Source of the DNA: Escherichia phage FV3
DNA: 64,000 bases
Direction: 5' to 3' (one strand)
Sequence record: NC_019517.1
The position numbers and the translations under genes are program-made. Each line of letters opens with the position of its first letter. The first letter of the stretch is position 1. Under the pieces are notes generated by a model. That model had not been told where the DNA came from, searched no databases, and saw only the letters and a list, made by a program, of their open reading frames with translations. Positions 4,288 through 61,079 of this stretch are shown in pieces.

Positions 4288-4310
4288 AGGGAGGCTTGCG
4301 CCTCCCTTTT
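4288..4310 (+). terminator. intrinsic terminator
   Basis: AGGGAGGC-TTGC-GCCTCCCT hairpin followed by TTTT. Confidence 0.5.
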
Positions 4311-4325
4311 CATTTTGGAGGCACC

Positions 4326-5132
4326 TTGAGCAAGAAAGAGTCCAACGACAAATATTACACAGACCCTGAGTATGCAGAATATCTTGTTGGTAAAGTAAAA
4401 GTTAGGTATGGGAATTGTGCATACGTTGAGCCTTCTGCTGGAAAGGGTTCTTTTTCAAAACTATTTTCAGAGATACTGTCGTACGATTTGGTACCAGATC
4501 CTGAATTTGAAGGCCCAACACCGTGTATTAAGGCAAACTTCTTAGAGGTGTACCCTAAGGCTGATGTCTTCATAGGTAATCCTCCATTCGGCAAAAATTC
4601 GTCTTTAGCTTGCAAGTTCTTTAACCACTGTGCATCATTGCTAGAGCCTGGCGGGGCTATAGCCTTCATCTTGCCACGGACATTTGAAAAAATATTTTTT
4701 GCAAACAAGCTGGACATGTCAATGCACCTTATCTACAGCGAAAGGTGCCCCAAGAACTCGTTTTTACTTAACGACAAACCTTATGACGTGCCATGTGTTT
4801 TCCAAATTTGGGAGAAAAAGGTGTGCAATAGGGATCCTGTAGAGATTGGGGAGAATAAGTTATTTTCTTTTAGCACACCAGATGACTACGACTTCTGCAT
4901 AAGACGTGTTGGGTATAATGCTGGAAAAGTATTGGGGGAGGATGACCCAAAATCTGAAGAATCAACATATTTCATAAAATCTTTAGTTGATGGTGTTGAC
5001 AGAGTGTTTGCTGAATGCTATTCTTCTTTTCAAGAAGAAGCAGGTAAGACTGCTGGAATGAAGAGTATAGGCAAGAAAGAACTACAATACATTTTGGAGA
5101 CTAGGTATGATCAAAAGTATAGACTTGACTAA
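4326..5132 (+). CDS. N6-adenine DNA methyltransferase (motif I then NPPF)
   Basis: EPSAGKGSF (motif I) and IGNPPFGK (motif IV); no in-frame ATG before the motifs, proposed TTG start at 4326 after GGAGG RBS. Confidence 0.6.
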   Translation: MSKKESNDKYYTDPEYAEYLVGKVKVRYGNCAYVEPSAGKGSFSKLFSEILSYDLVPDPEFEGPTPCIKANFLEVYPKADVFIGNPPFGKNSSLACKFFNHCASLLEPGGAIAFILPRTFEKIFFANKLDMSMHLIYSERCPKNSFLLNDKPYDVPCVFQIWEKKVCNRDPVEIGENKLFSFSTPDDYDFCIRRVGYNAGKVLGEDDPKSEESTYFIKSLVDGVDRVFAECYSSFQEEAGKTAGMKSIGKKELQYILETRYDQKYRLD

Positions 5133-19183: not shown

Positions 19184-19717
19184 ATGACTTGTGCTAGAAA
19201 ACCTGATGAACAACGTAACGCTTACGACGAGTATGTGACACCGGAGTGGTGTGCAGAAGGGCTGTATGACCTTATTCCGTTCCCAGAAGACTGGACCTAC
19301 TTAGAGCCTTGCAGGAATAGCGCTTCAGGTGTGTTCTACTCCCGTATGCCGTTAGGATCTGCATGGGGAGAAATTCAAGAAGGTGTTGACTATCTGAATA
19401 CAGAATACAACCATGTTGACTGTATTATCACCAACCCGCCGTACAGCCTGGCTCGTGAGTTTGTGGACAAGGCGTTGAAAGATGCCGACGTAGTTATTAT
19501 GCTTTTGCGTCTTAATTTTCTGGAAAGCAAGACCAGATTTGAATGGTGGCTTGATAATGCACCTACCACTGTGATCACAATATCTAAGCGTCCGTCATTC
19601 CAATCCAATGGTAGAACGGATGGGCAGGCATATGCCTATTTTGTATGGGACAAGAAAAACCGTCTAGGCTTGCCGCCATTTATGTGGTTGGCACCACCAG
19701 AGGCAGACTTGAAATGA
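19184..19717 (+). CDS. DNA methyltransferase (NPPY motif), probable N6-adenine
   Basis: 177-aa ORF with DCIITNPPYSLAREF. Confidence 0.5.
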   Translation: MTCARKPDEQRNAYDEYVTPEWCAEGLYDLIPFPEDWTYLEPCRNSASGVFYSRMPLGSAWGEIQEGVDYLNTEYNHVDCIITNPPYSLAREFVDKALKDADVVIMLLRLNFLESKTRFEWWLDNAPTTVITISKRPSFQSNGRTDGQAYAYFVWDKKNRLGLPPFMWLAPPEADLK

Positions 19718-55532: not shown

Positions 55533-57596
55533 TTAAAAAGGTGTTTCGTCGTCTTCAAAACCGGGGACGTGGTTAGAGGACGGATCATCATACTGAGGAT
55601 CTTCCTGCGTGTCAACTGGGGTAACAGTAGGAGTTACAACCTTATCAGCCACAACCTTACCCATGGGGGTTTCCACAACTGCATGATCCTGATCCTCAAA
55701 CATAGCCTGAGGTCTCCAAACAACCTCCCCACCTTCTCCGTCTGTAAACATCTGCATTTCTTTATCCCAATACCAATTGCTGGCATCGTGGAACTTGCCT
55801 GTGTGAGGATCCATAACCAAAGTGTCCGCAATACCTAACGTTTTTGCTGGGCGGTTTTTAAGACCTACTAGACGGACACGTCCACGGGAACGATCCACCA
55901 TCTCTTCTGCCTCTACCCCAACAACTACCCAGCTAAGTTGCTCCAATCCGGCGCTACCACGAAGGTTCTCTTTTCGTACAGGATACCAGAAAGGCAACGG
56001 ATTCCCATCCTTATCCTTAGGAGGTATAATCTCTGTGCGCTTCAGGTGAGCAATAACCAAGATAAACACATTAAACTGCTTACAGAACGCAGCTAGTTGA
56101 GTCATAGCCATGTCAAGTTCTTTGCGCTCATCCTTAACATTAAGCCCTGAAATCACCATGGACAGGTGATCCAGCACAATGTAACGGCAGTGATACAGGC
56201 ACACCATTTGTTTAAGCTTAGTGATCAGCTCATCCACAGGGATGGAGCCGAAATGCTTGAACACTTTGATTTTTCCGGCCTTGGCCCAAGATTGATGAAT
56301 CTCAGCGTGCTCCTGGTCGGTCAGGAACTGACTGGGGTCTTCAACAAACTCTTTAACATCAAACCCCAACTGGTTAGCGTATAGAGAGTTGATTGCTTCC
56401 TCCGGATCCTCTTCAAGGTGAATCAGGCACAGGCGATCATCCTCTTCATAATCATCAGCTTTAGGGCATGTTGGATCCATCAAGTATCTTGCAATGCAGT
56501 GCTCCAGCTTCTTGGCTACAGTTGTTTTACCACCGCCAGATGGGCCTGTCAGCATCATCAAGGTGCCTTTGTGGAGTCCTTTCAGCATCTTCTGCAGTTT
56601 AGGGAACTCTGCGCTGATATCTACGCCATTGGAAGTCTTCTTACGAAGGGATTCAATAGAGAAGTCTTCTAAATCAGATACAGCATCAGGCACATATTTG
56701 ACTGGGTGACGGAACATGTTGACAATATCTTCCAGCTTTTTAGCCTTCAGCATGTCACGGATATCTTTTACACCATCAGGGTCGTTTACCTCACCTGGGT
56801 ATTCCACGTGGTAAACGTTATCAGCCATCAAAAATGCTGCGATATTATGTGTGGCTTCAACACCTTTGATAACGTGTTTTTGCTTCTCTATCTCGTTAGC
56901 TGCATCGTTGTCCATTGCAAGGACTACTGTTCCATAGCTACGGATAAATTTCTCATTGTTCGCAAAAGTGTCTACGGCGTTTGCACACCCGCAGTTAATT
57001 CCAACAAAAGGTAGGCAGGGTTTTCCTGCCAGATCGCCGCCGTTGATAACTGCATCGATCCCATCCTGAACTTCTTTAGCCCACTGCTTCACCTTTGCGG
57101 GGGCTTTAGCATTGGTGAGAATACTTTTTACTTGTATCTGATATGCAGCCTGCCATGCTGCAATAACATCTCCTTCCCCCTCACAAACGTTAATCTGCTT
57201 GCGGTTGTTGGAAGATGCACACAGCTTTTGACCAAACATCTGGGAGTTGGCCTTTACTATGCCAACAACCGAGAAATGGCCCCTTTGCTCTTTAGGGATT
57301 GTCCAGTCACGCTTTTTAAAGCCAGATAGATTACCGTAGCGGTCATAATACGGGAAGTAGGTGGCAGTAACAGTTACACCATCCTCTTGAGATAGCGATG
57401 ATCGTACACCAAAATATTGTGCAGCCATCAGTCCAATATTTTGTTGTGGAACAGGGACAATTTTAGTATTTTCTAAAACAGTCTCTACAGTTTCAACTTC
57501 TTTTTCATCACGATAGTCTCGTTTCACACTTCCCCCACTTTTATATTTGGTTGCTTTCGGGTTTGGCTCACCGAAACGGTTGTATGCAGATGCCAT
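55533..57596 (-). CDS. primase-helicase (T7 gp4-like)
   Basis: TOPRIM-like CEGEGDVIAAW; Walker A MMLTGPSGGGKTT; DnaB-family helicase region; acidic C-terminus ending DDETPF; ATG at 57596. Confidence 0.8.
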   Translation of the reverse strand: MASAYNRFGEPNPKATKYKSGGSVKRDYRDEKEVETVETVLENTKIVPVPQQNIGLMAAQYFGVRSSLSQEDGVTVTATYFPYYDRYGNLSGFKKRDWTIPKEQRGHFSVVGIVKANSQMFGQKLCASSNNRKQINVCEGEGDVIAAWQAAYQIQVKSILTNAKAPAKVKQWAKEVQDGIDAVINGGDLAGKPCLPFVGINCGCANAVDTFANNEKFIRSYGTVVLAMDNDAANEIEKQKHVIKGVEATHNIAAFLMADNVYHVEYPGEVNDPDGVKDIRDMLKAKKLEDIVNMFRHPVKYVPDAVSDLEDFSIESLRKKTSNGVDISAEFPKLQKMLKGLHKGTLMMLTGPSGGGKTTVAKKLEHCIARYLMDPTCPKADDYEEDDRLCLIHLEEDPEEAINSLYANQLGFDVKEFVEDPSQFLTDQEHAEIHQSWAKAGKIKVFKHFGSIPVDELITKLKQMVCLYHCRYIVLDHLSMVISGLNVKDERKELDMAMTQLAAFCKQFNVFILVIAHLKRTEIIPPKDKDGNPLPFWYPVRKENLRGSAGLEQLSWVVVGVEAEEMVDRSRGRVRLVGLKNRPAKTLGIADTLVMDPHTGKFHDASNWYWDKEMQMFTDGEGGEVVWRPQAMFEDQDHAVVETPMGKVVADKVVTPTVTPVDTQEDPQYDDPSSNHVPGFEDDETPF

Positions 57597-57600
57597 GAAT

Positions 57601-58362
57601 TTACTGCCCATTAATTCTGCTCCTTACTGCAGGCTCGTTTGCTAAGAATACAGCTTTAGCCCAGCCACGTGGTGTAAGGCTTCGAATCATCTTCGTCCTT
57701 GCACTCTTTCCACCTAGCTTAGCGTGTTGCATAGAATAACCACTGACCGCATCCACTATTTGCGGGACAGGTTTTGTGGCTGGGATTATAAAGCCATTGC
57801 CTATCCAACCGCAAGTTATTTTTGGGTAGGCATCACGTGGAGCTATAAATTCAGGAAACCACGGGTTTACATCATCTTCTGGTAAATAACCGCCATAATC
57901 CGAAGGATGAAAACGATAATCAGGTTTACGCCACAGCGTTGACATAACCCCTACAGGGTTCTCTACATGCCACGGGCAATCATAAATCTCTCCCAACTCT
58001 TCTGCAACCCGAGCATCTTTTACAGCATTAATTTGGATCAGAGGGTCTTTAGCCAGCTTTTTCTTAAAATGTGCAGCACCTGATACCGCCAAATGCGTGC
58101 ACGGAGGAAACGCAAGAATAAAGTCTGGAGCAGGATACATGCAAAAAGTTTCCTGAGGGAACCACGGATCAATCCAATAATCCACATAGTGAATATTGGG
58201 GTGATCGGTTATCACCTCCGCATAACTGCCGTGGTCAGCACCTTCTGCATTAAAGCACAGGCACAGATACCCAGCTTTTGCCCAGTCAATGACTGCACCA
58301 CCAGACCCATCAAATAGACTCCACACAACACCTTTGTGGTGGTGTTCTTTGTAGATAAATTT
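57601..58362 (-). CDS. minimal C5-cytosine methyltransferase-like protein (no obvious target-recognition domain)
   Basis: Motif I-like LFDGSGG, motif IV-like FPPCTHLAVSGA (PC), motif VI-like WHVENPVG; ~254 aa; TTG start at 58362 after AGGAGA RBS. Confidence 0.45.
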   Translation of the reverse strand, partial: KFIYKEHHHKGVVWSLFDGSGGAVIDWAKAGYLCLCFNAEGADHGSYAEVITDHPNIHYVDYWIDPWFPQETFCMYPAPDFILAFPPCTHLAVSGAAHFKKKLAKDPLIQINAVKDARVAEELGEIYDCPWHVENPVGVMSTLWRKPDYRFHPSDYGGYLPEDDVNPWFPEFIAPRDAYPKITCGWIGNGFIIPATKPVPQIVDAVSGYSMQHAKLGGKSARTKMIRSLTPRGWAKAVFLANEPAVRSRINGQ

Positions 58363-58382
58363 CAATTTGCTGTCTCCTAATG

Positions 58383-58410
58383 CAAAAAGCCCCACCCTTT
58401 CGGGCAGGGC
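58383..58410 (-). terminator. intrinsic terminator (repeat of 47383-47411)
   Basis: Same GCCCTGCCC-GAAA-GGGTGGGGC hairpin plus U-run, after stop of 58417..58899. Confidence 0.5.
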
Positions 58411-58416
58411 CTAGTG

Positions 58417-58899
58417 TTAAACCCGGATACCTATTGTATACTCAGTAGATACCAATGTCAAATCTAAATTTAAAATTTCTTGCATCTCATAGTATGCGTC
58501 CAGGGTGAGATACATTTCCCCATCCTTTTCCACATACTTGTCAAGGTGTTTGAGGCACTTTGGATAACTATCAAGAGCCGCCTTTAAGCACTCAAACTCT
58601 GTGCTGTTGATAAATCCTTCCATCTTGGCTACCCGTTCTGGGGTAACGATAGCACTGTAGTGAGATTTAGCTTCCTGAATGCAATGGGTCCAAGCATCGA
58701 CTTTCTCTTCGAAAAGTCCGAAGAACTTCTTCTTGGTGAGCTTCAGATTCTTTAAGTGCTTAAGCACTCGGTTGCCGATCACAGACACATCACGAAACTT
58801 AAGGATCACTTTGTCAATATCCTCGCGGCCTATTTTCACAAAGCAAGCCTCACACATTTCAGGAGAGGCATAGCCTACCTTCCACATAAAATCTGACAT
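58417..58899 (-). CDS. hypothetical protein
   Basis: 160-aa ORF. Confidence 0.5.
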   Translation of the reverse strand: MSDFMWKVGYASPEMCEACFVKIGREDIDKVILKFRDVSVIGNRVLKHLKNLKLTKKKFFGLFEEKVDAWTHCIQEAKSHYSAIVTPERVAKMEGFINSTEFECLKAALDSYPKCLKHLDKYVEKDGEMYLTLDAYYEMQEILNLDLTLVSTEYTIGIRV

Positions 58900-59671: not shown

Positions 59672-61015
59672 TTACTCTAAATCTTCTTCTGAGTCAAACT
59701 TATCTTTCACAACCAAGTTCGGGGCAAGTTTATAATAGCGAAAGCCCCCGCCACCGTGCCAGTTTACAGATTTAGAAATACCACTTTGATCTTCGCCATC
59801 GATCACTTTTTGCAAGCGCGGGATGATATGGGTATGACAATGATCACCTAGCTCGACCGAAATCCAACGTCTTTTCATCTTGTGAGCTACAGCAGCAGTA
59901 GTTCCTGAACCGCCGAACGAATCCAAGACTAAATCCCCTTCTCGCGTACACATTTCGAAAATCCGCTTTAAAAGCGCTTCGGGTTTTTTCCCATTTTTGA
60001 AACTAACGCCTCCTTCATTTGCTATTCCATTCCAACTAATGTCAGTCCAAACATCAGTTATTAGTTCAGCAGGCTGCATCTCACCGTCAATTTCCAAAAG
60101 CCTATTAGAGTAAAATACCATTTGCCTGCCATTTACAATATAAAAGCCTTCGACATCCTCATTTGGATGTACATAAACCTTATCCCTATCTTTCTTTGAC
60201 TTCTCGATAGTTTCTTTTCTCTTTATCTTAGCACCACCGCCAATTGCAACGGATTGAAATACACGTTCTGCATTATCAATTGCAAATTGTGCTAATTCAT
60301 CATCAAATGTATCAGGCAGTTTTTTCTTGGCCTCTTTTGTATCTTTATAGCCATTGGCCTTTGCAAACGCATCGGCAATACCGCACCACGTCCAACTTTT
60401 ATAATGGTCATCCGGGTTTAATAGATATTTGTTATATCCCGTATCATATCCTTTAGGTATATAGATTTTGTTAAGCGGCTTCTTGGTACGATCTTTTGCA
60501 TATACAAGCAAAAAGTTTGCTGTGGAGAAAACTGTAGTTCCTGTTGCCTTAAAGCCCGAAGGACAGTTTGTGGTCATCGATATGGTATTTAACTGATTTG
60601 CACGACCAAAAATCTCGTCCATCAAAACTTTTAAATAAGCCATTTCGCAGTCATCTAAGTGAACAAATATTACTCCATCATCGCTTAGCAGATTACGAAT
60701 TATTTCTAACCTGTCCCGCATTAAGCCCAGCCAAATGGAGTGCTCCAGGCTATCATCGTAGTGCTCAAAATCCCTTCCGGTATTGAATGGCGGGTCTATG
60801 TAAACACACTTCACTTTGCCTGCATACTCTTGCTCTAGTGCCTTCAATGCCAGTAAGTTATCGCCAAAAATCAGTTTATTATCAAAAATATCGTTTTCGG
60901 TCACCTTTTTACTGGCGTGATAAGACTTGCTCGTGTCTTCTAACAAAATGCACGGATCTAACTTTTTTCGCTCGTTTTTGCCTGTCCAGGTAAGCTCTAA
61001 TTTGGTTTTGCTCAT
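59672..61015 (-). CDS. DNA methyltransferase, N6-adenine/N4-cytosine beta class (Type III Mod-like)
   Basis: LIFGDNLLALKAL, VKCVYIDPPFNTG (DPPF), C-terminal VLDSFGGSGTT (motif I); ATG at 61015 after GGGGAGAG RBS. Confidence 0.7.
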   Translation of the reverse strand: MSKTKLELTWTGKNERKKLDPCILLEDTSKSYHASKKVTENDIFDNKLIFGDNLLALKALEQEYAGKVKCVYIDPPFNTGRDFEHYDDSLEHSIWLGLMRDRLEIIRNLLSDDGVIFVHLDDCEMAYLKVLMDEIFGRANQLNTISMTTNCPSGFKATGTTVFSTANFLLVYAKDRTKKPLNKIYIPKGYDTGYNKYLLNPDDHYKSWTWCGIADAFAKANGYKDTKEAKKKLPDTFDDELAQFAIDNAERVFQSVAIGGGAKIKRKETIEKSKKDRDKVYVHPNEDVEGFYIVNGRQMVFYSNRLLEIDGEMQPAELITDVWTDISWNGIANEGGVSFKNGKKPEALLKRIFEMCTREGDLVLDSFGGSGTTAAVAHKMKRRWISVELGDHCHTHIIPRLQKVIDGEDQSGISKSVNWHGGGGFRYYKLAPNLVVKDKFDSEEDLE

Positions 61016-61079
61016 CGTTTGGTGCTCTCCCCAGTTTTGTGGGGAGGAGTTCCTCCCCTTTATACTCACGTCTTACTAA

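Follow-up and report, generated by a model that had tools for sequence, protein, structure and literature searches.

An open reading frame (ORF) on the minus strand of Escherichia phage FV3 (NC_019517.1), next to the primase-helicase gene, probably encodes an active S-adenosylmethionine (SAM)-dependent DNA cytosine-C5 methyltransferase, one of a large family of stand-alone phage proteins that are short, at about 210 to 260 amino acids (aa). The stretch of DNA analysed here, called the window throughout, is 64,000 nucleotides (nt) long. The assignment is supported by family membership, fold, conservation of the catalytic residues, gene context and the 5-methylcytosine (5mC) formed by a 54%-identical relative. 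From these lines of evidence we infer that the window protein itself would be active, and what its target site, its timing and its part in anti-restriction may be.

The first-pass annotation had placed the ORF at 57601-58362, with about 254 aa and the strand left unstated. The ORF is real and the length was right; it lies on the minus strand, and no start codon is present at 58362. The revised gene is as follows.

57601..58365, minus strand: gene for the short C5-cytosine DNA methyltransferase, a coding sequence (CDS) running from TTG to TAA, 254 aa

The TAA stop codon occupies 57603-57601 on the minus strand, and the longest frame extends from a GTG at 58395 to the stop at 57601, giving 264 aa. 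This GTG falls within a terminator-like hairpin at 58412-58387. The probable start is the TTG at 58365-58363, which has a GGAG sequence upstream and gives a protein of 254 aa; hence the earlier end was 3 nt short. The database cluster representative (P0001, 98% identical) has the same length of 254 aa, which is also fitted by the 765-nt CDS labelled 'Dcm-like C5 cytosine methyltransferase' in phage EduardKellenberger (MZ501061). Unless stated otherwise, residue numbers refer to the 254-aa form.

All three motifs quoted in the first-pass annotation, LFDGSGG, FPPCTHLAVSGA and WHVENPVG, were found exactly in the ORF. Together with the other elements recognised in the family alignment, they are located as listed below.

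58297..58317, minus strand: motif I, LFDGSGG, the SAM-binding loop, residues 17-23 (family alignment)
58075..58110, minus strand: motif IV, FPPCTHLAVSGA, with the presumed catalytic Cys89, residues 86-97 (family alignment)
57949..57972, minus strand: motif VI, WHVENPVG, with Glu135, residues 132-139 (family alignment)
57814..57840, minus strand: PRDAYPKIT at the motif VIII position, residues 176-184, Lys182 invariant
57715..57801, minus strand: short variable segment of the 'GYSxQH' type in the place of the target recognition domain (TRD), residues 189-217 (alignment)
57637..57714, minus strand: C-terminal signature GGKSARTKMIRSLTPRGWAKAVFLAN, the motif X equivalent, residues 218-243 (family alignment)

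Across the 26 aligned family sequences, FDGSG, PPC, ENP, the lysine of 'AYPK' and the pattern 'GGKS-RTK-IRSLTPRG-A-AV' are invariant or nearly so. The fully invariant residues include P87, P88 and C89 of motif IV, E135, N136 and P137 of motif VI (where the usual E-N-V has its V replaced by P), and G218, G219, T224, K225, I227, R228, S229, L230, P232 and R233 of the C-terminal signature. The window protein also matches phrog_757, 'DNA methyltransferase', with E=4.4e-87 over residues 10-261 of the 264-aa form. Because FDGSG, PPC and ENP are so strictly kept and the phrog_757 match is so strong, these motifs are therefore no chance matches. In a profile search of PDB sequences, motif I aligned with motif I of DNMT3B and M.HaeIII. 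Motif IV aligned with the PC dipeptide of DNMT3B in that search, and with those of E. coli Dcm and CmoX in separate profile comparisons. The pair Lys182-Ile183 (K-I) stands where K-K is usual in the family; the nearest relatives carry Leu at the second position. Arg228-Ser229 precede the last helix, which spans residues 233-251 in the structural model.

Neither the QxRxR of motif VIII, nor motif IX, nor the GN of motif X was found in the window protein or the family alignment. Only 45 residues separate Lys182 from Arg228, and the span from motif VI to motif X is 92 residues here versus 193 in CmoX and 211 in E. coli Dcm, so that the earlier remark that the protein is too short for a normal TRD was well founded. 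Residues 189-217 form the sole variable stretch of the family and occur in two separately conserved variants, GYSxQH and DNPGW. The same segment has the lowest predicted local distance difference test (pLDDT) values of the model, 73-83, and would be the part of the protein that sets specificity.

The family itself is very large. The window protein has 3545 homologues in a large protein database, and a profile of 26 homologues retrieved 2032 clusters at 50% identity, with values below 1e-10 for 926. With few exceptions these clusters are stand-alone proteins of 210-260 aa, and the family median is 233 aa. By tblastn, the gene was found in 1502 phage records, chiefly from Escherichia, Klebsiella and Salmonella phages, with an identity of at least 95% in 114 of them. 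GenBank relatives that share 98-99.6% identity with it go by the names 'Dcm-like C5 cytosine methyltransferase', 'DNA cytosine methyltransferase' and 'DNA methyltransferase'. Annotations of the gene thus exist in over 100 rV5-like genomes, and its family is a known one with a characterised member.

The structural evidence agrees with this picture. An AlphaFold2 model built on the family alignment reached a pLDDT of 88.4 and a predicted template modelling (pTM) score of 0.88, and the window protein has the three-dimensional fold of a C5-methyltransferase. When the model was compared with the PDB by Foldseek, DNMT3A and DNMT3B led the matches, and a prophage cytosine methyltransferase was also returned. 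In a viral structure library, phage 'DNA-cytosine methylase' models were matched with template modelling (TM) scores of up to 0.81 (query-normalised) and 0.91 (target-normalised). Searches of PDB sequences with phmmer and the family profile returned DNMT3B and M.HaeIII as the only methyltransferases, both insignificant and confined to motifs I-IV, and a profile of the C-terminal half matched no methyltransferase among the sequences of solved structures.

Two side observations on the distribution of the family were made. Some larger proteins contain the short methyltransferase domain as well: it forms the C-terminus of proteins of 400-450 aa and lies inside uncultured-phage proteins of more than 1100 aa, one of which has an annotated helicase/UvrB N-terminal domain; examples are P0241, P0252 and P0270 as well as BFVD A0A6J5SE15 and A0A6J5NPY6. 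About 39 'Campylobacter phage' records (MG065635-MG065690; host C. jejuni) carry the methyltransferase gene; those among the matches listed share 98-99% identity with rV5-like coliphages in the proteins compared and about 92% in the DNA of the 12-kb region. They appear to be coliphages that were filed as Campylobacter phages.

The characterised member is the 'Dcm' of phage K42, whose genome is 95.4% identical to that of KarlJaspers/Bas06 (bioRxiv 10.1101/2023.08.16.553469, later published as Cell Rep 2024 43:114857). In that study, all four K42 escapers of retron Ec86 carried lesions in the 711-bp 'dcm' gene, and dcm expression was toxic solely when retron Ec86 was present. When K42 Dcm was expressed, targeted liquid chromatography-tandem mass spectrometry (LC-MS/MS) showed a rise of 5mC in purified multicopy single-stranded DNA (msDNA), and no rise was seen with a C82A/E128A/K175A/K176A mutant, K175 and K176 being termed substrate-binding residues (bioRxiv 10.1101/2023.08.16.553469). 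KarlJaspers bas06_0055 (711 bp), which by both annotation and length is the Bas06 counterpart of K42 dcm, encodes a protein that shares 54% identity with the window protein across 235 residues (E=2e-86). The mutated residues C82, E128 and K175 correspond to C89, E135 and K182 in the window protein, and K176 corresponds to Ile183. Since the family contains a 5mC-forming relative, the window protein is therefore no new kind of enzyme. The suggestion of the first-pass annotation that it may act on another substrate finds no favour either, because the 54%-identical homologue raises DNA 5mC and the catalytic mutant does not.

Several points nevertheless weigh against an active DNA cytosine-C5 methyltransferase comparable to the K42 enzyme. 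No Pfam or NCBIfam model matched the window protein, PF00145 being absent at E values up to 10; in favour of the assignment, however, weak PF00145 matches were obtained for 18 of the 26 family members (best E=1.3e-6). The second lysine mutated in K42 Dcm is the isoleucine at position 183 here, and the variable segment is of the GYSxQH type in the window protein versus the DNPGW type in K42/KarlJaspers. The LC-MS work on K42 targeted 5mC alone (bioRxiv 10.1101/2023.08.16.553469). An hhalign comparison of the family profile with E. coli Dcm gave a probability of 0.35%, over motif IV only; the 'Dcm-like' name and the CCWGG site are therefore without a basis in sequence. Indeed, CCWGG was taken over from E. 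coli Dcm in the K42 study and was tested by mutating the msDNA CCTGG only, and the work was done in MG1655, in which empty-vector msDNA was low in 5mC and the retron was not self-activated (bioRxiv 10.1101/2023.08.16.553469). Because MG1655 carries its own dcm and the control msDNA was yet low in 5mC, the true site of the K42 enzyme, CCWGG by assumption, is uncertain. Either host Dcm cannot reach the msDNA, or the phage enzyme does not share the specificity of Dcm.

These points bear most directly on what the enzyme recognises. Because the variable segment comes in two conserved variants, specificity may differ between the GYSxQH and DNPGW types, and thus between the window protein and that of K42. 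It is nevertheless improbable, in our estimate, that the rV5-type enzyme is no copy of Dcm and leaves a mark other than CC(5m)WGG, be it a new short site or, more radically, 5-carboxymethylcytosine made with host carboxy-SAM; in the former case, one possibility is recognition by the smallest known recognition element of any C5-methyltransferase. Such a reading is prompted by the enzyme's own conserved GYSxQH version of the variable segment of roughly 30 residues and by the invariant Arg in the motif X loop on the cofactor side. The frequency of CCWGG in the window is 0.91 of the Markov expectation, neither depleted nor enriched, and says nothing either way about specificity. Also unlikely is an active C5-methyltransferase with little or no specificity, which would methylate most cytosines or those in a context of one or two bases. 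The approximately 45 residues between the motif VIII and motif X positions and the 92-residue span between motifs VI and X speak for such an enzyme, as do the lack of a recognisable motif IX and of any family member with a mapped site. Against it stands Webervirus FZ10, which encodes a 48%-identical homologue of the window protein and whose virion DNA is cut by HaeIII, BamHI, EcoRI and EcoRV. HaeIII does not cut GGCC when the inner C is 5mC. Global non-specific methylation is therefore unlikely, and with it the 'sequence-relaxed' methylase proposed in the first-pass annotation. DNMT3A and DNMT3B, the closest folds, are C5 enzymes that are CpG-specific with an equally small recognition element, and two separately conserved variants of the variable segment are what would be expected of a specificity element. 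Moreover, such phages are routinely grown on K-12 hosts, where widespread 5mC would leave them open to McrBC.

Other explanations concern the chemistry, the substrate or the activity as such. Were the protein a carboxymethyltransferase like CmoX, it would take carboxy-SAM from host CmoA and write 5-carboxymethylcytosine, which we hold to be very unlikely. The hallmarks of CmoX are an SPPC motif and Arg350, which replaces the Asn that M.HhaI has in motif X (Asn304), and wild-type CmoX uses carboxy-SAM only (PMC12783734). The window protein has FPPC in place of SPPC, and the loop that precedes its last helix, the right one for this comparison, holds the invariant Arg228-Ser229; in a gap-free sequence register, Ser229 rather than Arg228 may stand opposite CmoX Arg350. 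G-R-S at motif X is likewise found in DNMT3A, which is a true methyltransferase. K42 Dcm made 5mC itself, whereas CmoX takes only carboxy-SAM; the comparison with a CmoX-family alignment was weak (15% probability, motifs I-IV only) and, like the one with E. coli Dcm, gave no residue-level placement of motif X; and no CmoA- or CmoY-like gene is found nearby, three neighbouring ORFs being without a Pfam domain. Methylation of RNA, as by the DNMT2-like tRNA m5C enzymes, or of free nucleotides instead of DNA is highly improbable, as DNA enzymes score higher (13.5 down to 10.1), the homologue modifies the DNA part of msDNA, and the gene lies within a DNA replication module. The last alternative is a relic that has lost catalysis, or a protein that binds DNA but transfers no methyl group; a score under every curated threshold and Ile183 at the position of K42 Lys176, one of the four jointly mutated residues, would fit such a protein. 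All catalytic motifs are, however, intact and invariant, and protein identity stays at 98-99.6% across over 100 rV5-like genomes, compared with only about 92% for their DNA in this region. This difference points to purifying selection on the protein, and a dead copy is thus scarcely credible.

An active DNA cytosine-C5 methyltransferase also suits the position of the gene in the genome, which is described by the following features.

55533..57611, minus strand: primase-helicase gene, an ORF with AAA_25 and DnaB_C domains
58387..58412, minus strand: terminator-like hairpin, an 11-bp stem followed by TTTTGCATT (consensus scan and sequence)
58433..58461, minus strand: sigma-70-like promoter match TTGACA-17-TACAAT, 11/12 (consensus scan alone)

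As the first-pass annotation had stated, the methyltransferase gene lies beside the primase-helicase gene; it abuts 55533-57611 directly. The ATG of the primase-helicase at 57611-57609 overlaps the methyltransferase stop, with 11 nt shared between the two genes. This overlap makes translational coupling of the two genes probable. The gene order on the minus strand is rIIB, helicase, a small ORF, a Mod-like N6/N4 methyltransferase, three small ORFs, the short C5 methyltransferase, the primase-helicase and DNA polymerase, the last lying downstream of the methyltransferase/primase-helicase pair. Over the 12 kb around the methyltransferase, identity is 96.7% with Escherichia phage vB_EcoM_SYGMH1; many rV5-like phages, which belong to the genus Vequintavirus, match at about 92%. 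The window is thus from an rV5-like Vequintavirus.

The terminator-like hairpin stands directly 5' of the methyltransferase ribosome-binding site, and in MT682716 a 'terminator' feature is annotated beneath the match. The sigma-70-like match (58461-58433) lies upstream of the hairpin, within the 3' end of the preceding gene. A promoter match ahead of a strong terminator-like hairpin is an odd order; the predicted pair could represent a 5' leader or an attenuator, or the promoter match could be due to chance.

Taken as an ordinary C5-methyltransferase, the window protein would work as follows. Cys89 of PPC would attack C6 of a flipped-out cytosine, Glu135 of ENP would protonate N3, and SAM, held by the FDGSG loop, would donate its methyl group to C5. 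A very small DNMT3-like recognition element would take the place of the usual TRD, so that a short specific sequence would be marked. Given its place in the replication module and its probable coupling to the primase-helicase, the gene would provide an enzyme that marks newly made phage DNA. The mark may protect this DNA from 5mC-sensitive restriction enzymes. It would also come at a cost, since host immunity can sense the same activity, as with retron Ec86/Eco1, which is triggered by a related enzyme, and 5mC-dependent type IV restriction would see the mark as well.

Some further observations touch on restriction. Relative to Markov expectation on both strands, two palindromes are absent from the window, GGCGCC (0 versus 9.8 expected) and CTCGAG (0 versus 5.2); the observed/expected ratios are 0.43 for GAGCTC, 0.62 for GGWCC and 0.63 for GTAC, whereas GATC, at 1.07, is like CCWGG not depleted. 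This depletion is consistent with avoidance of restriction sites where protective methylation is absent. The original rV5 genome paper contains no methylation data and no informative digestion data, and the BASEL paper reports methyltransferase genes and restriction resistance without a simple link between them.

The first-pass annotation had counted four methyltransferases in the window, the other three being of the adenine type. The count stands as one of methyltransferase-like ORFs: the three further ORFs are real and carry the NPPF, NPPY and DPPF motifs respectively.

4296-5132, plus strand: NPPF ORF, 278 aa, phrog_5172, no assigned function
19184-19717, plus strand: NPPY ORF, 177 aa, phrog_799, E=4e-67
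59672-61069, minus strand: Mod-like DPPF ORF, 465 aa, N6_N4_Mtase PF01555, E=3.9e-42

The protein of 4296-5132 gave only weak matches, to Eco57I (E=0.004) and, over its N-terminal half, to phrog_799 (E=1e-13), and may plausibly be an adenine methyltransferase. That of 19184-19717 shares 98-99% identity with the proteins called 'putative N6 adenine methyltransferase' in BASEL Vequintaviruses, and corresponds to the Bas51 enzyme of that name. Nanopore sequencing showed that the Bas51 enzyme methylates GATC; it triggers retrons Asa1 and Squ1, with the escape mutations D69G, D79G and T83P falling in this enzyme (PMC12548924). By residue count, Asp69, Asp79 and Thr83 are all present at the corresponding positions of the 19184-19717 protein. 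The phage thus probably carries two methyltransferases able to trigger retrons, namely the short C5 enzyme and the product of 19184-19717. The Mod-like gene is present in WalterGehring, isim, APECc02 and others; it is missing in EduardKellenberger, where a 113-aa ORF is directly followed by a 100-aa ORF, and is therefore an accessory gene. A regular-expression search of all window ORFs of at least 90 aa revealed no further long ORF with motif IV that could be a fifth methyltransferase.

As a discovery, the short C5-methyltransferase carries little weight, the gene being conserved and already annotated and its family having a characterised member. Its interest lies elsewhere. The activity presumed to shield phage DNA from restriction is, in a relative, the very one sensed by retron Ec86/Eco1, and rV5-like phages used for therapy or biocontrol may thus be vulnerable to this retron and to 5mC-dependent restriction. 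A further point of interest, for a very common family of enzymes of 210-260 residues, is how so small a protein reads DNA.

Compared with the known systems, the window protein stands nearest to K42/KarlJaspers Dcm, with which it shares architecture, size and the FDGSG, FPPC, ENP and IRSLTPRG motifs. It differs in a 10-residue N-terminal extension and in having K-I for K-K, and its gene lies beside a primase-helicase in a 137-kb myovirus, whereas K42/KarlJaspers (Drexlerviridae) is a 51-kb siphovirus. Between motifs VI and X it is about 100 residues shorter than the PF00145 enzymes E. coli Dcm, M.HhaI and M.HaeIII, and unlike the classical type II C5-methyltransferases it has no QxRxR, motif IX, motif X GN or PF00145 score. 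The catalytic domains of DNMT3A and DNMT3B are its closest folds, yet the identity is only 12-16%; the window protein is stand-alone and has no regulatory domains, with nothing pointing to CpG specificity or to the DNMT3 oligomer interfaces. Finally, SpCmoX of Synechococcus phage S-B43 (PDB 8YF3; PMC12783734) is a 372-aa protein with a full TRD and a clear PF00145 member, and its gene is adjacent to CmoA and CmoY, whereas the window gene lies beside the primase-helicase and small ORFs.

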